Assembly (NCBI GenBank): GCA_963833055.1 | Contig: CAWHWM010000005.1 | Span: 9,321-73,320, forward strand | Reading direction: 5' to 3' | Length of the DNA: 64,000 nucleotides | Source of the DNA: Candidatus Dormiibacterota bacterium | GTDB taxonomy: Bacteria > Chloroflexota > Dormibacteria > Aeolococcales > Aeolococcaceae | Shown: piece by piece, positions 6,483 through 36,334 of the stretch | Layout: each line of letters begins with the position of its first letter | Numbering within the stretch: position 1 is the first letter of the stretch | Translations under genes and position numbers: made by a program | The notes under the pieces: model-generated | The model's database searches: none | What the model was told of the DNA's origin: nothing | Seen by the model: only the letters and a program-made list of their open reading frames with translations

Positions 6483-9400
6483 GTGGTCTGTTCGAACTGC
6501 GGTGAGACCAATGCTGTGGAGCGCAAGTTCTGTGGCGAGTGCGGGGCTCCGCTCGCGCAGCTCTGCGCCGCGTGCGGCGCGCGGAATCCTGTCGGAGTCA
6601 AGTTCTGCGGGGAGTGCGGTTCGTCTCTCGGAGCATCTGGGGACGGAGCCGGCGTCTTACCACCGAAGCCTGCGACCGTCGGCTCGGCGTCCACGGTGCT
6701 GGCCGAGATCCGCCTGGTCTCCGTGCTCTTCGCGGATCTTGTCGGATTCACGACACTCTCGGAGTCGCGCGATCCAGAGGAGGTGCGTGATCTCCTCTCG
6801 CGATACTTCGACGTCTGCCGGGGACTGATCGAGCGCTACGGCGGGACGGTCGAGAAGTTCATCGGCGATGCGGTGATGGCGGTGTGGGGCGCACCCACAG
6901 CCAACGAGGACGACGCTGAACGCGCCGTGCGAACCGGCTCTCGAACTCGTTGCGGCAGTCGCTGAGCTCGGCGCGCGAGGTCGGCGCTCCGGACGCTGCG
7001 TGCGCGCGCCGGGATCGCTCACCGGCGAAGTGGCGGTCGACCGCTCGGCGACGACGGCCGAGGGCATGGTGGCCGGAGACACTCGTGAACACGGCGTCGC
7101 GCGTTCAGTAGCGCCGCCGAGCCGGGCATGCGTGCTTGTCGACGAGGCAACCATGCGCGCAGCAGCGCCGGGCGATCGCCTACGTCGAAGCCGGCGACCC
7201 TCGACCCTCAAAGGGAAGGCAGGAGCCGGTCGCGGTATGGGAGGCGCAGCGTGTCGTCGCCCAGCGCCAAGGGATCGGCGCGGTCGAGAGCGGCTCGAGC
7301 CACCGTTCGTTGGACGGGAGCGAGGAGCTCCGATTGCTCAAGGAGCTGTTCCATGCGACCGCTCGAGAGCAACGTCGCTCGTCTGGTGTCGGTGACGGGC
7401 CTTGCCGGAATCGGGAAGAGCCGGCTCGCCTGGGAGTTCCTCAAGTACGTCGACGGCCTCGCGGCAGACGGTGTACTGGCACGCAGGGACGCTCCGCTGC
7501 GTACGGTGAGGGCATCAGCTTCTGGGCGCTCGGCGAGATGGTGCGGATGCGGGCGGGGATCACCGAGGGCGAGGATCCTGCTCAGGCCCGCGCCGAAGCT
7601 CAGCGCCTCGGTCGCCGAATTCGTCACCGATGCCGACGAGCGGCGGCTGGATCGAGCCACGCGCTCGCGTATCTGCTCGGACTCGCCGAAGCACCGGGCG
7701 GCGACCGAGAAGAGCTCTTCAGCGCGTGGCGCACCTTCTTCGAGCGCATCGCGGACGCACGGGCCAACGGTGCTCGTGTTCGAGGATCTGCAGTGGGCGG
7801 ACCCGGGGCTGATCGACTTCATCGAGTCGATCGCTCGAGTGGTCGCGGAGTCGCCCCTGTTCGTGCTCACCCTGTCCCGACCCGAGCTGCTGCAGCGGCG
7901 CCCCACCTGGGGCGCAGGGCAGCGTTCATTTACGGCGCTGCATCTCGAGCCCCTGCCGCCGGCGGCGATGGCCGCGTTGCTCCGCGGCTTTGTCGCCGGA
8001 CTTCCGGAATCAGTGGTGGAGCACGTGCTGCACCGCGCCGAAGGAGTGCCGCTCTACGCGGTGGAGACGATCCGGATGCTGGTCGACCGAGGTCAACTGG
8101 TGGAGCGCAACGGGGTGCTGACGGTCACGGGAACGCTCGAGTCGCTCGACATCCCCGACACGTTGCACGCCCTCATCGCATCGCGCCTCGACGGGGTGAC
8201 GGCGGAGGAGCGCTCGCTGCTCCAGAACGCCTCCGTCATCGGTCAGAGCTTCTCGATCGCGGCGCTCGCCGCCGTCTCGGGCCGGAACCGAGCGGCGCTG
8301 TCCGCCCCACTCCGGGACCTGGTGCGCAAGGAGCTTCTGGCGCTCGACACCGATCCCCGTTCGCCGGAGCGCGGCCAGTACGGCTTCGTTCAGGGCCTGA
8401 TTCGTGAAGTCGCCTACGGGACACTCGCGAAGCCGGAGCGGCGGGCGAAGCACGTCGCTGCCGCATCGTACTTCGAGGGCCTCGACGACGAGGAACTCGT
8501 CGGCGTGGTGGCGACCCACTACGCCGAGGCACAGCGAGCCACCGCGATGGCCCGGAGCGAGATGCGCTCGTCGAGCGGGCTCGGGAGTGGCTCACGCAGG
8601 CGGGCCGCCGCGCACTCGCGCTCGGTTCGTCCGAACAGGCTCTGACGTACCTGGAACGGGCGCTAGAACTCACCGGGGAAGGCGGCACCAGAGCGGCGCT
8701 CCTCGACCTGGCTGGCGAGGCCGCGCTGCACTCCGATGCGTTCGAGCGCTCCGTGGCGCACTACCAGGCGGCGGCGGCCCTGCACCAGAGCGCAGGCGAC
8801 CTCGATGCCGCCGGTCTCAGCACGGCGCGCCTGACCTGGGCGCTGGGCGACGGACTGTCGCGGGTTTCCGAAGCGATGGAGCTCGCCGAGCAATTCCTGG
8901 CAAAGCTTGGTGAAACCGCCAACGAGCGAGCGCGTGCCGACGTTGCGGCGACTCTCGCTTCGTTGCAGAGCTCGACCGGCGCCTCCGACGAAGCGCTCGC
9001 CTGGGCTGAGATGGCGTGCGTGCTGGCCGAACGCATCGATGACGCCGAACTGCTCGGCCGAGCGATCGGCTCGAAGTCAGCCGCGATGTTCCGCCTCGGA
9101 CGCCACCGCGAAGCCGTGATGCTCGCTCGTGGCCGGATGGCACTCGCTGAGAACGCCGGGTCACTGGTTGAGTGCAGTGTCGCGACGCTGTACACCTCGA
9201 TCTTCGTGCTCGATGACGACCCGCACGAGGCGATCAGGCTCCAGCTCGAAGCCGCCGATCTGGCGCGGCGGGCCGGTGTCCGCAGCCTCGAGACGGTGAA
9301 CCTGCTCAATGCCGCGGAAGGCGCGATCATGCTCGGGCATTGGGACGATGCGCGATCCGCGTTGGACGCGCTCAGCCAGCGCGACCTCGCGCCCGCCCGT

Positions 9401-30086: not shown

Positions 30087-31057
30087 GCATCGCCGCGGAC
30101 GAGCTCCTGGAGCCGATCTCCACGGAGCTGATCGAGTTCGAGCGCCGGCTCGACGCCGAGATCGCGTCCGACCTCGGGCCGATGGCGAGCGCGATGTCCC
30201 ACATCGTCAAGGCGGGAGGCAAGCGGCTGCGGCCGGCTCTGGTCATCCTCGCCGCGCGCCTCGGAGACGCCAACCCCGATGACGTGTTCAACCTGGCGAT
30301 GGGGATCGAGTTCATCCACACCGCGACGCTCGTGCACGACGACCTCATCGACAAGGCACCGACCCGGCGCGGGATCCGCACGATCCACGAGGCGCTCGGC
30401 CCCGACCCTGCCGTGATCATCGGCGACTATTACTTCGCCAAGGGCGCGTACCTGCTGGCCGAGATCGGCATGCCGGCCATCGACTCCGCGATCAGCCACG
30501 CGGTCATGACCATCTGCATGGGTGAGCTGCTCCAGATGACCAGCCGGAACGAGTACGACCAGACGCTCGCCGACTACCACCGCAAGATCGGGCGCAAGAC
30601 GGCGACCCTGGTCAGCACCAGCTGCTACGGCGGCGGGCTGATCGCAGGGCTCGACGAAGAGGCCGTGGAGCGCCTGCGCCGCTACGGCCACAGCCTCGGG
30701 ATGGCATTCCAGATCGCCGATGACGTCCTTGACTACGTGGCGACCAGCGCTGAGGTGGGGAAGCCGGTCGGCGCCGACCTGCGCCAGGGGACGGTCACCC
30801 TGCCGCTCATGCTCGCGTTGAACGACCGTGAGGTCGGCGCCCGGCTCCGCAGGATTCTGGCCAGGAATGACCTCAACGAGGAGGACTTCGACACCGTGGT
30901 CAGCCTTGTGCGCGGCTCGAACGCGATCGCTGAAGCAGAGCGCAGTGCCCAGGAGTTCGCGCAGGAGGCTTCAACCGAGCTGCAGGGCTTCCCGCCGTCG
31001 CCGGCTCGCGAGACGCTCGAGCGCGTCTGCGATTACGTGGTGGAACGGCGGATCTGA
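30083..31057 (+). CDS. polyprenyl diphosphate synthase (trans-isoprenyl chain elongation, HepT/IspB-like)
   Basis: GTG 30083 overlaps the murI stop (GTGA); first DDxxD LVHDDLIDKAPTRRG and second AFQIADDVLDY. Confidence 0.85.
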   Translation: MSIAADELLEPISTELIEFERRLDAEIASDLGPMASAMSHIVKAGGKRLRPALVILAARLGDANPDDVFNLAMGIEFIHTATLVHDDLIDKAPTRRGIRTIHEALGPDPAVIIGDYYFAKGAYLLAEIGMPAIDSAISHAVMTICMGELLQMTSRNEYDQTLADYHRKIGRKTATLVSTSCYGGGLIAGLDEEAVERLRRYGHSLGMAFQIADDVLDYVATSAEVGKPVGADLRQGTVTLPLMLALNDREVGARLRRILARNDLNEEDFDTVVSLVRGSNAIAEAERSAQEFAQEASTELQGFPPSPARETLERVCDYVVERRI

Positions 31058-31061
31058 CCGG

Positions 31062-31650
31062 TCACAACGCGCCGAGGCGGCGCACCTCGGTGCCGAAGCT
31101 GCGTGCCCACGCCGCAAGGACCAGCGCAGCCACCACGTACCCGAGCGCCTCGGCGACCGTCGCCGGCATGCGTCGATGCGATCCCCTTGTCGCCCGCCTG
31201 CGCGGCGATGAGGCTCGCGATCGTCCGCGCCACGTCCACGGCGGCGCACAGCACCACGACGACGAGCGCGGTCCTGACGACTCGATACTCGCGACGCAGC
31301 CCCGAGCGCAGCTGGGCGAGGGTCTGATGCTCGACTGCGGTTCTTCCCGGCGGTGGCTCGGTGGCGCCGTGCCGCAGGCGCAGGACCGCTGCGCCAAAGC
31401 ACAGGGCGGCAACCCATCCGGGCCAGAGCGTGCGCGTGGTTGACCCGGTCGCGATCAGCGTCTGCAACGGGTTGAGCGCATCGTGCGCGGCAAGCTCACC
31501 TGCGAGCGACTGGTGCAGGCGCACGAGCAGGGTGCCGGCGACGCCACACGCGGCCGCGGCGATCACCACCGCGATGCAACGCAGCGCGATCGGACCGCGG
31601 TCGAGGAAGACGAGCTCGGTGAGGTGTGCGTCGCGCTGTGGCTGCACCGT
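31062..31650 (-). CDS. hypothetical membrane protein, possibly frameshifted
   Basis: Hydrophobic segments in ORF 31033-31941 (minus) continue into ORF 31062-31412 (minus) in another frame; no family recognised. Confidence 0.25.
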
Positions 31651-31669
31651 GGCATTGTAAGTTCGGTCG

Positions 31670-32686
31670 ATGTCGCGAGCCAGAAAATCCACGCCCCGCA
31701 GGATTCGCGTCGCCACGTACAACATCCTGCTCGGCGGCGAGAGTCGCCGCGGCCTCATCCACAACGTGCTGCGGCGCATCGATGCGGATGTCGTCGCGCT
31801 CCAGGAAGTCAGAGAGATCGATCCAATCCGCGAGCTCGCAACCGACCTTGGGATGGAGATGTTGCTCGGTGAGCCGAGCGACCCGGACTCTCCGATGCAC
31901 ACCGCGATCCTCACCCGCCTGCCGGTGCACGCATGGCACAACCGCCGCCATCACGGACGGATGCTCCGGTCCCACCTCCACTGCGACATCGAGACGGGCG
32001 GCGCGGAGGTCCCGCTCGTCGGGGTCCACTGCCTCCACCTCGCCGCACGCTTTGGGGAGCGCAACAAGGGCGAGGCCCGGCGCATCCGCGAGATCGGCGC
32101 CGTGCTGACCGACATCGCCGATGAGCCGCATCTGCCCCACATGCTCATCGGGGACTTCAACGCGCTGTCCCCGGGCGACGACATCCTGGCGACGTCGTTC
32201 TTCCGGCGGATGAACGATCTTCGCCGCGCCGGATTGCTCGTCGCCGGACCGAACGGGGTGGAGCCGCTGGTTCCGGGCGCGTCGGACTCGGCTGACGGAC
32301 TGGCGGACCGGTGGCGGCGAGCGGGCGTTGATCCGCGCTTGCTGGGCGGCATCCCGGCGTTGCCACGTGTCGTCTCGCCACTCACGGCCGGCCTCCCCGT
32401 GTCGCGGGCGATGGACCGGCTCATGGGACGCCTGATCGAACGCTGGACGGTCGAGCGCCTGCTCAAGGAGGGATACGTCGACTCGTACCGGCGGATCCAC
32501 CCGCGAGCTCGCGGGCTCACCTGTGCGACGTGGCAGCTCTCAGCGCGGGTCGACTACGTGTTCGCCACCCCTGACCTTGCCGAACACGTCACAGGCGCGG
32601 ATGTGGTGGGGAGCAGGACATGGCCGGATCAGGACGCCGCCGCGGCGTCTGATCACTACCCGGTGGTCGCTGAGTTCAGCGTCTGA
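31670..32686 (+). CDS. endonuclease/exonuclease/phosphatase (EEP) family protein
   Basis: N-terminal IRVATYNIL, DADVVALQEV, C-terminal SDHYPVVAEF: the characteristic EEP catalytic motifs. Confidence 0.8.
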   Translation: MSRARKSTPRRIRVATYNILLGGESRRGLIHNVLRRIDADVVALQEVREIDPIRELATDLGMEMLLGEPSDPDSPMHTAILTRLPVHAWHNRRHHGRMLRSHLHCDIETGGAEVPLVGVHCLHLAARFGERNKGEARRIREIGAVLTDIADEPHLPHMLIGDFNALSPGDDILATSFFRRMNDLRRAGLLVAGPNGVEPLVPGASDSADGLADRWRRAGVDPRLLGGIPALPRVVSPLTAGLPVSRAMDRLMGRLIERWTVERLLKEGYVDSYRRIHPRARGLTCATWQLSARVDYVFATPDLAEHVTGADVVGSRTWPDQDAAAASDHYPVVAEFSV

Positions 32687-32709: not shown

Positions 32710-33162
32710 TCAGTTCCCGACACCACCGACGCCCGCCTGGATCGACGTCACGGCCGCGTACACGACGGCGAGGAACAGGATCGTGATCACGACCGCGACG
32801 ATGCCGGTGACGATGCCGGTGATCGCCATTCCCTTGCCGCCACCGCCGTGCTCATTCGCATGGCGAACCCCGATCGCCCCGAAGATGATCGCCAGCGCCC
32901 CGAGCACGATGCTGATGTAGTCGACGAAGGGGATCCAGCAGAGCACCACCGCGACGATGCCGCACACGCCACCGGTGATCCCGAGGCCATTGCTTGGGGC
33001 GACTGCGGGATATCCCTGCGGCACCTGGGAGTACCCGTACTGGCTGCCCTGGGGCGGATATCCCGGCTGCTGGGGTGGCAGCCACTGCGGCTGGCCGGGA
33101 GGAGCCCCCTGGGAGCCGTCCCACTGCGGCGGTTGCTGCGGAGCGTCTGGAGCGTCAGGCAT
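32710..33162 (-). CDS. DUF4190-like small membrane protein (proline/glutamine-rich N-terminus + 2 TM)
   Basis: MPDAPDAPQQPPQWDG...PQGYP then GITGGVCGIVAVVLCWIPF and second TM; architecture recalled as DUF4190. Confidence 0.7.
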   Translation of the reverse strand: MPDAPDAPQQPPQWDGSQGAPPGQPQWLPPQQPGYPPQGSQYGYSQVPQGYPAVAPSNGLGITGGVCGIVAVVLCWIPFVDYISIVLGALAIIFGAIGVRHANEHGGGGKGMAITGIVTGIVAVVITILFLAVVYAAVTSIQAGVGGVGN

Positions 33163-33195
33163 GTGGTCTCTCCCTCCTTGCGATCCGCGCGCCGG

Positions 33196-33741
33196 CTAGG
33201 TGGCCGGAGGTGGCGGTGGTGGCGGCGGCGGCGAGGTCGGAAGCTGCGGCCTCGAGAGTGGCGCGGTGGCCGGCTGCGGTTCCGACCGTAGCAGGTAGCC
33301 TCCGACACCGACGGCCGCAGCGGCGATGATGCCGATGAAGACGCCAAAGCTCGGCCCGGACGAGTAGCCAGGAAGGTCCGAGTAGATCGCATACACCGAT
33401 GAGTACCCGCCACCGGTCACGAGCCACAGCAGTGCGCAGAGGATCATCACCACGCCGATGCCCAGGTAGATCGCCGCGTCCGTGAAGGGGAGGGCGGGAA
33501 TGCTCACCTGGGGCACGAAGGTCCGGATCACGAAGAGCGCAAGACCGACCAGGATCGCCAGGAAGAAGATCCAGCCCGACCAGTACCCGAGCGCATCGTG
33601 GCCTCCGCTGTCGAGGCCGCTGAAGGTCGGGATGGTCGTGCTGTGCCACGGGAGGAAGGTGTCGATGAGCCCGACGACGAGCCCGCCGGCGACCACGAGG
33701 CCGCCATTCGACACCTGCTTGCCAGCGACGTTCATTGGCAC
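33196..33741 (-). CDS. paralogous polytopic membrane protein P1 with C-terminal poly-Pro tail
   Basis: 4 predicted TM; motifs FLPWHS, GYWSGW, IRTFVP..IPALP; ends TSPPPPPPPPPPAT (10 consecutive Pro). Confidence 0.7.
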   Translation of the reverse strand: MPMNVAGKQVSNGGLVVAGGLVVGLIDTFLPWHSTTIPTFSGLDSGGHDALGYWSGWIFFLAILVGLALFVIRTFVPQVSIPALPFTDAAIYLGIGVVMILCALLWLVTGGGYSSVYAIYSDLPGYSSGPSFGVFIGIIAAAAVGVGGYLLRSEPQPATAPLSRPQLPTSPPPPPPPPPAT

Positions 33742-33765
33742 CTCACACGTCCGTCGGAACGTTGG

Positions 33766-34308
33766 TCAGACGGACGCCGGCGGAGGAGGTGGTGGCGGGG
33801 TCCCAGACGGTGTCTGGTACGCGCTGAAGGGCTTGGTTGCCGGCTGTGGATCCGAGCGCTTGAGGTAGCCACCGACCGCGACGACGATGCCCATGATCAG
33901 ACCGATGATCAGCCCGAAGCTCACGCCGGCGGAGTAACCGGGCCCGGAGAACGACGCCGGAGCGCCGAGCAGGAGCCAGAGGAGCGCCGCAACGGCCATC
34001 ACCACGCCGACCACGATGTACGTCATCGAGTCGTTCAACGGCAGGGCCGGGATGGCCACGGTCGGAGCGAAGGTCCGGAGGATGATCAACGCGAGTCCGA
34101 TCAGCACGAACAGGAAGAAGAACCAACCCGTCCAGTAGCTCAACCCGCCGACGGACGCGCTGTCCGAGAACCCGCTGGTGACTCCGGCGATGCTGCCGGT
34201 GGAGTACGAGTAGCTGTACCAGGGAAGGAAGAGGGCGATCAGACCGATGATCAGTCCGACGCCGACCGCAATGTCCCCATTCGAAAGTCTCTTGCCTGCG
34301 ATGTTCAC
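33766..34308 (-). CDS. paralogous polytopic membrane protein P2 with C-terminal poly-Pro tail
   Basis: Roughly 40-50% identical to P1 by eye (FLPWYSYS, SYWTGW, LRTFAP..IPALP); ends GTPPPPPPPASV. Confidence 0.7.
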   Translation of the reverse strand: MNIAGKRLSNGDIAVGVGLIIGLIALFLPWYSYSYSTGSIAGVTSGFSDSASVGGLSYWTGWFFFLFVLIGLALIILRTFAPTVAIPALPLNDSMTYIVVGVVMAVAALLWLLLGAPASFSGPGYSAGVSFGLIIGLIMGIVVAVGGYLKRSDPQPATKPFSAYQTPSGTPPPPPPPASV

Positions 34309-34332
34309 GTGTGTTTCTCTCCCTCTTGTTGC

Positions 34333-34890
34333 TTATGCGCTTGGCGGTGGTGGCGGTGGCGGGCTGCCGTAACCGCCTGGTGGATTGCCGTAGCCGCCGA
34401 CGTTGGGGGTGGCCACCAGCGGCACGTCACCCGGCCACCGGCTGATCACGACGATGTACCACACGATCCCGTAGACGATCACGCCGAAGATCAGCCCGAA
34501 AATGGCGCCGCCCGCGGAATATCCGCCCAGCGTGTAGATCCCGCTGTACGCGACGATGTTCCCGATGGCGCCCACGATGGCGCCGAGGAACGCGAGCGCG
34601 AGTGCGTAGATCACCAGCCGCTTGCCGGCGCGGTTCATGCTGTACATCTGGAACCCGCCGATCGCGCCAATGATGTCTGCCACGAGGCCGATCAGGATGC
34701 CGATGAGCCAGATGCCGCCGAAACCGCCTGCAGCGAGGCTGAAGAGGGAGAACAGGCCGCCGATCAGGCCGCCGAATACCGCTCCAATGAGCGCCAGGAT
34801 GCCGATGACCAGCCCAAGGATCTTCGCGTTGACGTTCAGCTTTACCGGTGGGTTCGCCGCAAACGGCGGGTCAGTCAGGATGTTGGCCAT
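34333..34890 (-). CDS. glycine-rich polytopic membrane protein P3 with C-terminal poly-Pro tail
   Basis: Gly-zipper-like TM helices (GLVIGILALIGAVFGGLIGG...), ends GSPPPPPPPSA; same strand and spacing as P1/P2. Confidence 0.65.
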   Translation of the reverse strand: MANILTDPPFAANPPVKLNVNAKILGLVIGILALIGAVFGGLIGGLFSLFSLAAGGFGGIWLIGILIGLVADIIGAIGGFQMYSMNRAGKRLVIYALALAFLGAIVGAIGNIVAYSGIYTLGGYSAGGAIFGLIFGVIVYGIVWYIVVISRWPGDVPLVATPNVGGYGNPPGGYGSPPPPPPPSA

Positions 34891-34981
34891 TGGTTTGGGT
34901 GGTTCCTCCCAGCGTGAATGAGCAGGTGGGGCATCGACCTTGATCGGGTGCGCCAGGTCCCCGAGGCGCCGGATCGGTGGA

Positions 34982-35437
34982 TTATGGAGTAATCAGGGCC
35001 TCGTGGGAAAGGCTTTCACGAACTGTTCGACGGCGATCCGGATGCAGCCGCCTGAATACCGCAGCGGTGCAGAGGCCGGCTGCGGCAATCAGCGCCAGGA
35101 AGATCCCGATGCCGAGTGACCGTCCGGTCGCCTTGGCAAGGATCATCTGGATGAGCACACTCCCCATTGCAAGCGCAGCAGCGAGCGCGTGAGCGGTGCT
35201 TTCAGGAATGTACGGAGTGACGACGTCATCGACGAATCCTCTGCCAATCAGCAGCAGCAGGATGACGGCGGCAATCGCGATGAAGAAGACGTCCCCGAGC
35301 AGCGATGCTCGAAAAGCGTTAACCGTTATGTGCGAATGACCCGAGGTGTACGCGTACCACGGAAGGAACGCAACGAGGACACCAAGAGCTGCGGACGCCG
35401 CACCGATCGCCTCCGCCCTGTTGATGTGGGTGGGCAT
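34982..35437 (-). CDS. membrane protein P4, N-terminally related to P1/P2 (FLPWYAYTSG), no poly-Pro tail
   Basis: 151 aa, 4 TM; shares the N-terminal LPWY motif with P1/P2. Confidence 0.6.
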   Translation of the reverse strand: MPTHINRAEAIGAASAALGVLVAFLPWYAYTSGHSHITVNAFRASLLGDVFFIAIAAVILLLLIGRGFVDDVVTPYIPESTAHALAAALAMGSVLIQMILAKATGRSLGIGIFLALIAAAGLCTAAVFRRLHPDRRRTVRESLSHEALITP

Positions 35438-35542
35438 CGCCGAGACCTCGAGATGAACCTGGATGGAGCACCGGCCGCTGACGCGCGCACCGGTATGTGT
35501 GTGGTTGGTTCGAGTGAATGGTATGCAGCGCTGTCCGTACTG

Positions 35543-36334
35543 TCAACGCCGCCGGCGCGTGCGAGAGCTCGAATTGCCGGGTTTCACGCCGCCGCCTGGA
35601 GGTGCAACACCCGTGTCCGCGGCGAAAACCGGCGGCTTGCCGGCCACGAGCAGATCCCCCAGGGTGCGCCAGTTGAAGCGTTCGCTCCCGCGCCGCACCA
35701 GTTCCACAAAGCACGCCGCGGTTGCCTCGGCGTCGGCGAGCGCGTGATGCGGCTTGCGGTGCACGACGCCGAGCTCGCGGCACAGCCGCTCCAGGCCGAT
35801 CGTGTCCTTCAGATCGAACAGCTTCGCCGCGAGTCTCGTCGTGTCGACATTGTCTGCGTCGAGGCTCGTTCCGATCGCGCGGCCGATCAACCGGGTGTCA
35901 AACGCATCCGCGCTGTGCTCGACGAGCACGGAGCCTGTGGCAAAGCGCTGAAAGCGCTCAACAACGAGCGACACGGGAGGCGCGCCGTTCAGCGCTGCCG
36001 CGTCGATGCCGTGAATGCGTCGCGCATACGGATTGATCCGGTCGTTGCTGTGGACCAGCGTCTCGAAGCTCATCAGATGCTCGCGCATCGTGAAGGCGAC
36101 AGCGCCCAGCTCCACGAGATGGTGCGGCGACTGCCCCGTGGTCTCGCAATCGAGCGCGACGAAATGCAGCGACTCGATCGGCGTCTCTGGAGATGGCCGT
36201 TCCGCTGACCAGGAATCCAGAGCGTCGTCAGGCGAGGCAAAGGGCTCGGCACCCGCCGGACCGAGTTGCGAAAGAAACTTATCGCCCGTGGGGACCCTCC
36301 CTCGGCGGCGACCATATCGCCGGCGAGTTTCCAT
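35543..36334 (-). CDS. DnaQ-like 3'-5' exonuclease (DEDD family, DNA Pol III epsilon-like)
   Basis: Exo I FVALDCETTG, Exo II region VLVEHSADAFDTRLI, Exo III HHALADAEATAACF; R-rich N-terminal 50 aa may precede the true start. Confidence 0.75.
   Translation of the reverse strand: METRRRYGRRRGRVPTGDKFLSQLGPAGAEPFASPDDALDSWSAERPSPETPIESLHFVALDCETTGQSPHHLVELGAVAFTMREHLMSFETLVHSNDRINPYARRIHGIDAAALNGAPPVSLVVERFQRFATGSVLVEHSADAFDTRLIGRAIGTSLDADNVDTTRLAAKLFDLKDTIGLERLCRELGVVHRKPHHALADAEATAACFVELVRRGSERFNWRTLGDLLVAGKPPVFAADTGVAPPGGGVKPGNSSSRTRRRR

Follow-up and report, generated by a model that had tools for sequence, protein, structure and literature searches.

Gene content of the array

Our analyses concern five consecutive open reading frames (ORFs) on the minus strand, at positions 32710–35437 of a 64,000 nucleotide (nt) stretch of DNA from an uncultured soil bacterium of the Candidatus Dormiibacterota (assembly GCA_963833055.1, contig CAWHWM010000005.1, positions 9,321 to 73,320 of the forward strand; hereafter the window), which encode small membrane proteins. 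Beginning with the gene farthest upstream, these are P4 (34982..35437, minus strand; 151 amino acids (aa)), a divergent paralogue within what we term the FLPW family, with four transmembrane (TM) segments and a basic tail (RRLHPDRRRTVRE...ITP) without polyproline; P3 (34333..34890, minus strand; 185 aa), a four-helix membrane protein of a separate family with a polyproline C-terminus; P1 (33766..34308, minus strand; 180 aa), an FLPW-family tetraspan whose tail ends in PPPPPPPASV; P2 (33196..33741, minus strand; 181 aa), a tandem paralogue of P1 whose tail ends in PPPPPPPPPAT; and a DUF4190-like protein (32710..33162, minus strand; 150 aa), in which three hydrophobic helices follow an N-terminal region rich in Pro, Gln, and Tyr. 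The inter-gene spacers are 33, 24, 24, and 91 nt, and the ORF coordinates, which are as first noted, and these spacers confirm the five co-oriented membrane-protein genes, 24–91 nt apart, of the preliminary description. The array is a co-oriented and probably co-transcribed cluster for five small integral membrane proteins, which by sequence comparison appear to belong to three unrelated families; the earlier proposal that a single envelope protein family is diversifying at this site does not hold for it.

Each of the five genes is preceded by a Shine–Dalgarno (SD)-like sequence (GGGAGGA, GAGGGAG, GAGG, AAGGAGG, and GAGG), and in all of them the GC content at third codon positions (GC3) exceeds the overall GC content (GC3 is 0.84–0.86 in four genes, with overall GC of 0.65–0.68, and 0.67 in P4). 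The ratios of nonsynonymous to synonymous substitution rates (dN/dS) in comparison with the orthologues of two related loci (L008 and L002), which are approximate because dS is near saturation, are 0.11 for P4, 0.19–0.20 for P1, 0.21 for P2, 0.32–0.33 for P3, and 0.48 for the DUF4190-like gene. On the basis of these features and of the homologue clusters described below, the five genes are real and under purifying selection. A possible alternative start for P2 is the ATG at 33735 (MNVAGKQ), with GAGG 5–6 nt upstream of it.

The FLPW tetraspan superfamily

P1 and P2 are 51% identical over 174 aa from end to end (BLASTP, E 2e-44), and the motif pairs by which they were originally recognized as alignable paralogues (viz. 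FLPWYS/FLPWHS, SYWTGW/GYWSGW, LRTFAPTVAIPALP/IRTFVPQVSIPALP, and RSDPQPAT/RSEPQPAT) have all been verified. P2 differs from P1 in its FLPWH variant and in an 11-residue insertion in outer loop 2. P4, which carries AFLPWYAY, has a pairwise BLASTP E value of only 1e-4; a hidden Markov model (HMM) of the P1 family, made from 80-odd homologues with P4 left out, matches it with an E value of 3.4e-9 (3.6e-87 for P1 and 9e-66 for P2). When the set of P4 orthologues is compared with the P1 set by hhalign, the probability is 97.9% (E 3.7e-13, 133 columns), and a tblastn search with P1 directly matches the P4 gene of a related locus (L022; E 6e-11). The N-terminal FLPWY module that P4 had been said to share with P1 and P2 is by these measures real, in a much more divergent member of the family, and the BLASTP, HMM, and hhalign alignments speak against a merely compositional similarity among the three proteins, a possibility raised at the outset.

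The columns that are invariant in P1, P2, and P4 are F27, P29, W30, G61, P87, P90, G128, and G132, of which F27, P29, and W30 constitute the FLPW motif at the outer end of the first TM helix (TM1), while P87 and P90 are located in loop 2. All three proteins show a full-length profile match, [FL][LI]PW after TM1, and P..P in loop 2, the features by which we delimit the FLPW tetraspans. These alignments strongly support the view that P4, P1, and P2 are paralogues within a large, unnamed bacterial superfamily, and equally strongly that P1 and P2 represent a tandem duplication, which only some relatives have kept. No Pfam, NCBIfam, or PADLOC model covers P1–P4.

The homologues of P1 (86 clusters) and those of P3 (169 clusters) come, wherever the source name is informative, from records labeled Candidatus Dormibacteria, -ota, or -aeota or bearing the old label “Chloroflexi bacterium”, and hence the polyproline-tipped P1-type and P3-type subfamilies look confined to the Dormibacteraeota. 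A scan of one genome per GTDB species has identified 19 loci in this phylum, the closest being that of the metagenome-assembled genome (MAG) MFD01716.bin.2.17 (L006; 86% identity). For the superfamily as a whole, a tail-less profile of P1-, P2-, and P4-type sequences was run against 1.84 billion representatives, and it matched 2003 clusters (50% identity) at E ≤ 1e-3 and 307 at E ≤ 1e-10; the matches are full-length, and [FL][LI]PW[YFW] follows the first helix in most of them. Members from outside the Dormibacteraeota, obtained from the same genome scan, made with the pattern FLPWYS..., are found in a cultured Frankia, Actinocrinis, a Chloroflexia MAG, Nealsonbacteria, and an Oscillospiraceae MAG (~150 residues, 27–34% identity), and the superfamily is thus represented in Actinomycetota, Chloroflexia, Patescibacteria, and Bacillota records. 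Because of this number of clusters and this presence in several phyla, the domain shared by P1, P2, and P4 is not lineage-specific. Of the lineage-specific duplication and diversification suggested earlier, the P1/P2 duplication and a copy number that varies among relatives can be retained, while the domain itself proves to be widespread.

Among 110 diverse members of the superfamily, ~14 carry zinc-ribbon domains fused to the N- or C-terminus, and in two the fusion is to DUF2510. For the FLPW core, no curated model was found in Pfam or NCBIfam, where matches are only weak or sub-threshold: the Frankia member matches DUF5336 (E 9.6e-5; 23.2 bits vs. a gathering score of 28.6), 10 of the 110 members weakly match Trp_oprn_chp (PF09534; best E 0.0066), five weakly match DUF7937 (best E 1e-5), and three match the NCBIfam “Rv2732c family membrane protein” (NF050115; best E 7.5e-6). 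These actinobacterial families resemble the FLPW proteins in being small, multi-TM, and often provided with Pro-rich tails; none of the window proteins matches any of the four models. As the four families have no known function, they add no mechanism.

P3 and the DUF4190-like protein

None of the P3 homologue clusters has a real Pfam domain. Membership of P3 in the P1 family was considered and rejected, the BLASTP similarity being 24% identity over TM stretches and the HMM E value 0.039; the hhalign probability of P3 with the P1 family (69) serves as a control for the TM background. In comparison with DUF4190, P3 gives an hhalign probability of 88 (E 2.9e-6) over 65 TM columns, which is not clearly above this control. 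Conservation in the P3 family is highest in the cytoplasmic N-terminal peptide MANxLTDPPFAxNPPVKLNVNAK (residues 1–23). P8, F10, P14, P15, K17, and N19 are invariant there, and the peptide is, besides the C-terminal tip described below, a further candidate for a linear motif in P3.

The fifth protein of the array matches the Pfam family DUF4190 (PF13828) with an E value of 1.6e-8 over residues 66–130 (56 of 62 profile positions), its score being 34.6 bits vs. a gathering score of 35; the matches of its orthologues, which in relatives vary in length or are absent, are also weak. P3 and the DUF4190-like protein therefore belong to families separate from that of P1, P2, and P4, in agreement with their initial description as different in fold. 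The Pro-rich theme that the DUF4190-like protein had been thought to share is another matter, for its Pro/Gln/Tyr-rich region of ~56 residues (32995–33162) is N-terminal and poorly conserved. An N-terminal Pro/Gln-rich region is common in the DUF4190 family.

Predicted structure and resemblance to claudins

An AlphaFold2 (AF2) model of P1, based on an alignment of 18 sequences (predicted local distance difference test (pLDDT) score 82.4, predicted template modeling (pTM) score 0.72), contains helices at residues 10–25, 59–80, 93–115, and 131–152, strands at 29–36 and 48–54 in outer loop 1 and at 120–122 and 125–129 in outer loop 2, and a disordered tail. The sequences of the loops (WYSYSYS..., SFSGPGYSAG / SFSGPGYSAGVSFG), with alternating aromatic and small residues and a GPG turn, are as expected of beta-hairpins. 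All Lys and Arg residues of P1 (K6, R7, R78, K150, R151, and K159) are located at the N-terminus, in loop 2, or in the tail and none in the beta loops, and on account of this distribution both termini are predicted by the positive-inside rule to be cytoplasmic. The charges of P3 (K17, K23, the loop NRAGKR, and SRW after TM4) likewise predict that both of its termini are cytoplasmic.

A Foldseek search of the PDB with the P1 model gave top 50 matches that are all claudins (4, 19, 3, 15, and 9), TARP gamma subunits, or GARLH4 (best E 4.6e-5, probability 1.0, TM-score 0.40–0.49, root-mean-square deviation (rmsd) 6–8 Å). A control model of P3 (pLDDT 83) has four helices and no strands, and in a Foldseek search of the PDB it matched nothing below E 0.1 and only generic G protein-coupled receptor bundles. 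The FLPW domain is thus predicted to be a four-helix bundle with a small beta-sheet formed by both outer loops, which resembles the claudin/PMP22/TARP fold; what this model shows is a likeness of architecture, with borderline TM-scores.

In a number of respects P1 is like the members of the claudin/PMP22/EMP/TARP/LHFPL superfamily. It is predicted to have ~150 structured residues, four TM helices, cytoplasmic termini with a very short N-terminus, and, less certainly, a beta-sheet formed by two outer loops, and it shares with them a Trp at the outer end of TM1 and a flexible tail with a conserved motif at the extreme C-terminus. The differences are that no sequence similarity to claudins was detected, that the bacterial host has no cell junctions, that the predicted sheet has 2+2 strands where that of claudins has 4+1, and that the P1 tip is polyproline-A/V and not a PDZ ligand such as -YV. 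The claudin signature W-(G/N)LW-C-C is also missing in P1, where W30 and W59 are present while GLW and Cys are lacking; in some homologues there is a C-x4-6-C pair in the hairpin turn, the spacing and place of which differ from those of the signature. A search of the PDB with the family profile gave no claudin and only a noise match, and the claudin families (Pfam PF00822, PF13903, and relatives) are not among the 25 most frequently matched families listed for the 110 superfamily members (E ≤ 5). One noise-level match to Fig1 (E 0.57) was recorded. The likeness to claudins may reflect either homology or convergence.

Pore lining or channel modulation is known for several proteins of the claudin fold (claudins, TARPs), and small four-TM proteins such as those of the array could be channels, pores, holin-like permeabilizers, or auxiliary subunits of transporters. 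Sub-threshold matches to Phage_holin_3_6 in six of the 110 superfamily members (best E 7e-4) and to Phage_holin_2 for P4 (E 0.96) point in the same direction. However, these matches fall well short of the gathering scores, the helices have only a few polar or charged residues with which to line a pore, and the array has neither a phage context nor a neighboring gene for a transporter, an ATPase, or a lysin; we consider roles of this kind very unlikely.

Polyproline C-terminal tips

The three C-terminal polyproline tails of the preliminary description are confirmed. The tract of P3 (34342..34362, minus strand) consists of 7 Pro, encoded by mixed CCG/CCA codons, and is followed by Ser-Ala-stop (PPPPPPPSA); that of P1 (33778..33798, minus strand) consists of 7 Pro followed by Ala-Ser-Val-stop, and that of P2 (33205..33231, minus strand) of 9 Pro followed by Ala-Thr-stop. 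The 64-kb window, read in all six frames, has 562 ORFs of 40 aa or more, and only P1, P2, and P3 contain a run of at least 6 Pro. In the P1 family, 71 of 85 clusters (~84%) end in 5–8 Pro followed by 0–2 small residues and a final A/V/L/M, and the same pattern with 5–9 Pro terminates 109 of the 120 listed clusters (91%) of the P3 family; the exceptions are mostly fragments or frameshifted calls, and none of the 180 motif-keeping homologues ends in Pro itself. The run ends 23–30 residues (P1 family) or 19–30 residues (P3 family) after the last helix, and the linkers from helix to tip are highly variable, with 64 and 89 distinct sequences, respectively. In ~350 kb of related loci, 28 of 2619 ORFs end in a run of at least 5 Pro, and 26 of these are P1- or P3-family genes; the remaining two are Arg-rich and look like spurious off-frame ORFs. 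Because the motif is kept while the linkers diverge, and because it is nearly confined to two families, the tip appears to be a short linear motif rather than a product of compositional drift, and what had been seen as a Pro-rich low-complexity theme in P1, P2, and P3 is better described as a positionally conserved C-terminal motif.

A number of homologues appear to be frameshifted, fused, or truncated (L008:6423–6986; L006:6360–6980 and 7567–8107; P0077, P0080, P0149, and P0186). The break in P3 of L008 is located at the C-rich polyproline codon tract (the tail reads ...PPRRHPAHSG) and may be due to an assembly error or a slippage-prone sequence. In another branch of the FLPW superfamily the terminus is ...PP[TQ]xF-COOH (e.g., STPPQPF and GGPPTPF; present in P0253, P0259, P0274, P0278, P0279, P0284, P0298, P0299, P0305, P0325, P0331, P0335, and P0347), and there are hints in these sequences that Pro-rich tips with a hydrophobic last residue recur in the superfamily and are perhaps a general feature of it.

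Runs of at least three consecutive Pro stall bacterial ribosomes, and elongation factor P (EF-P) relieves the stall (reviews PMC12856214, PMC11611912). The tips may therefore be translational throttles, by which EF-P activity or growth state would set the output of P3, P1, and P2 relative to that of P4 and the DUF4190-like protein, with the peptide itself having no partner. The tracts are indeed real and conserved, and the absence of a terminal Pro from all motif-keeping homologues fits an avoidance of Pro-stop termination, which is problematic. A throttle would, however, work anywhere in an ORF, whereas the run is always at the extreme C-terminus and has a constrained A/V/L/M end in two unrelated families, a terminal pattern more typical of a peptide motif. 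The two readings are compatible with each other, and throttling as the explanation of the tips seems to us doubtful. In being membrane proteins with consecutive prolines, P1, P2, and P3 are like known EF-P-dependent polyproline proteins such as the Escherichia coli membrane regulator CadC, from which they are distinguished by a run that is at the extreme C-terminus, much longer (5–9 Pro), and part of a conserved terminal motif in two families.

The junction from P1 to P2 (33733–33803, minus strand) contains a 9-bp perfect hairpin (GCGUCCGUC...GACGGACGU), which is flanked by pairing of CCUCC from the P1 proline tract with the GAGG before P2; its minimum free energy is -24.7 kcal/mol (z -1.4, 20/200 shuffles). 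The other two junctions, with z values of +1.2 and -0.1, have no SD pairing. Masking of the downstream SD sequence by the CCN tracts was consequently rejected as a general mechanism, the pairing being found at one of three junctions and not better than in shuffles. The same result bears on the idea that P3, P1, and P2 are monitoring substrates of the kind of SecM, MifM, VemP, or the RAPP peptides, in which a C-terminal stall ~25 residues beyond the last TM helix, released by the force of membrane insertion, would control translation of the next gene via mRNA structure. The last TM helix ends 19–30 residues before the final Pro, a distance at which insertion force acts on arrest peptides, the spacers to the next gene are only 24–33 nt, and the P1–P2 junction has the pairing just described. 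Nevertheless, the genes downstream encode other small membrane proteins and no component of Sec or YidC, conservation extends over the entire protein instead of being limited to the arrest site, and the motif persists even when another gene follows or when the next gene is 160 nt distant (L001). Together with the outcome of the shuffles, this makes regulation by arrest extremely improbable in our view.

Organization of the locus in related genomes

One clade of the Dormibacteraeota (clade 1) keeps the frame hemA ← → dnaQ-like ... ← EEP-family gene, within which the gene content varies. The order is P4-P3-P1-P2-DUF4190 in the window, L006, L008, and L011; P4-P3-P1-DUF4190 in L002/L003, L007, and L009; P4-P1-P3 in L014; P4-P1-DUF4190 in L022; P4-P1, up to the contig end, in L024; and a single P1-like gene in L004. 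In the window, the DnaQ-like exonuclease gene (DEDDh, RNase_T; 35543..36334, minus strand; Pfam RNase_T E 2.9e-21) lies 105 nt upstream of P4, and the location of the array just downstream of it, which was remarked upon from the start, is conserved in related genomes: the synteny hemA ← → DnaQ-P4 is found in L002, L006–L009, L011, L014, L022, and L024, and of the clade-1 loci examined only L004 lacks P4 after the DnaQ-like gene, its P1-like gene standing directly in this place. P4 and P1 occur together in every clade-1 locus except L004, a pairing that persists down to 36–46% identity, and P3 joins them in two different gene orders. By this comparison of gene content, P4 and P1 form the core unit, to which P2, P3, and the DUF4190-like gene are accessory.

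Orthologues of P2 are present only in L006, L008, L011, P0058, and P0212 and are absent from L002, L007, L009, L014, and L022. In a neighbor-joining tree without support values, the P2 clade branches more deeply than the two clades of P1 orthologues, with only the divergent copies of L004 and L024 branching outside it; among the P1 copies, those from genomes with P2 form a paraphyletic group relative to those from genomes lacking it. From the position of the P2 clade, the duplication seems to predate the sub-clade in which P2 is kept, and the distribution of P2 across the branches of P1 orthologues implies a minimum of one subsequent loss.

In a second clade (L001/L010, L012, L013, L015–L021, and L023), the P1 homologue is located after cysS. 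As the synteny with the DnaQ-like gene is limited to one clade and the P1 homologues of the other follow cysS, a functional coupling to this gene is not supported. At least in L001, the P1 homologue is followed by a gene (L001:5706–6350, plus strand) whose 214-aa product combines a zinc ribbon at its N-terminus (CPGC...CQRC) with PPPPPPPP in its interior and approximately four TM segments. This is another polyproline membrane protein beside an FLPW gene, and it weakly matches DUF5336 (E 0.28).

A scan for sigma-70-like consensus sequences found two sites vs. 0.5 expected in shuffles. The first (TTGACA-17-TACCAT; 35518..35546, minus strand) lies in the spacer between the DnaQ-like gene and P4 and agrees with the consensus at 10/12 positions, and the second (34981–35009, minus strand; 9/12) is at the end of P4, upstream of P3. 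Both are pattern matches only; the site at 35518–35546 suggests that the array may possess its own promoter and be transcribed independently of the exonuclease gene. The flanks of the array consist of housekeeping genes (viz. murI, polyprenyl synthase, and hemA/C/D), and in a PADLOC search the five membrane proteins had no match, only a generic DEDDh model matching the neighboring exonuclease; on these grounds a defense system or a phage origin was rejected. A long minus-strand ORF at 31033–31941, between the polyprenyl synthase gene and the EEP-family gene, overlaps the start of the latter. A further uncharacterized gene may be located there, since L002 has at this place a 217-aa gene without Pfam matches (6926–7579).

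The variability of the locus could mean that the five genes have no common function and were brought together by chance at a permissive spot between hemA/dnaQ-like and the EEP-family gene, their tails being Pro-rich disordered ends typical of the lineage and of little consequence. P2, P3, and the DUF4190-like gene are each missing in some relatives, the order in L014 differs, P1 stands elsewhere in the second clade, nothing ties the neighbors to one another in function, and no defense-system matches were obtained for the five proteins. On the other hand, the tip is conserved while the linkers diverge and is nearly confined to two families in the sampled DNA, the dN/dS values are below 0.5 for all five genes, and the P4-P1 pairing extends down to 36–46% identity. 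A chance grouping without function is in our judgment unlikely.

Proposed function

We propose that the FLPW proteins and P3 may be non-enzymatic organizers of the membrane, which would assemble laterally into homo- or hetero-oligomers. P1, P2, and P3 would each bear a flexible cytoplasmic tail of ~25 residues ending in 5–9 Pro, 0–2 small residues, and Ala/Val-COOH, and the tips, as polyproline II (PPII) helices, would be presented to one common cytoplasmic partner, in analogy to tetraspan scaffolds whose C-terminal tips bind adaptor proteins. Their 7–9 consecutive prolines would make the synthesis of these proteins dependent on EF-P. Taken as a whole, this proposal, which draws on analogy, is a tentative one; we hold it to be the likeliest of the readings considered, with somewhat less than an even chance.

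Several observations weigh against it. The structural likeness to claudins is moderate and comes from one AF2 model of an 18-sequence alignment (TM-score 0.40–0.49, rmsd 6–8 Å), and at the sequence level the window proteins show no link to the claudin Pfam families (E ≤ 1). The P1 homologue of the second clade stands alone beside housekeeping genes (cysS and an rlmB-like gene), without P4 or P3, which makes an obligatory complex of all five proteins unlikely. Moreover, no common gene neighbors were found among distant members of the superfamily, and no partner with a polyproline-binding domain was identified in our analysis.

In a more far-reaching form of the proposal, the FLPW family would be a true bacterial counterpart of the claudin/PMP22 fold with thousands of members in several bacterial phyla, combined in the Dormibacteraeota with a polyproline docking motif that is shared with an unrelated four-helix protein. 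The tip may then be read by a cytoplasmic PPII-binding module, as a prokaryotic analogue of tail-mediated tetraspan scaffolding. To our knowledge, the claudin/PMP22 fold has so far been discussed only for eukaryotes, and a search of the literature, of limited coverage and hence no proof of novelty, found no paper on bacterial claudin-like proteins, DUF5336, DUF7937, DUF4190, or the Dormibacteraeota envelope. We regard this wider reading as rather improbable.

Significance

Should the fold prediction prove wrong, the array would be no more than an ordinary cluster of uncharacterized small membrane proteins that includes a tandem duplicate. Should it prove right, a very large and wholly unannotated superfamily of bacterial membrane proteins gains a structural identity, and the origin of the claudin-type tetraspan architecture becomes testable in bacteria. 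The profile and the motif could serve to name several thousand “hypothetical proteins”. For the Dormibacteraeota, an uncultured phylum known here from MAGs alone, the tip that is common to two unrelated families of membrane proteins points to an unrecognized system of protein–protein recognition or to EF-P-coupled control.

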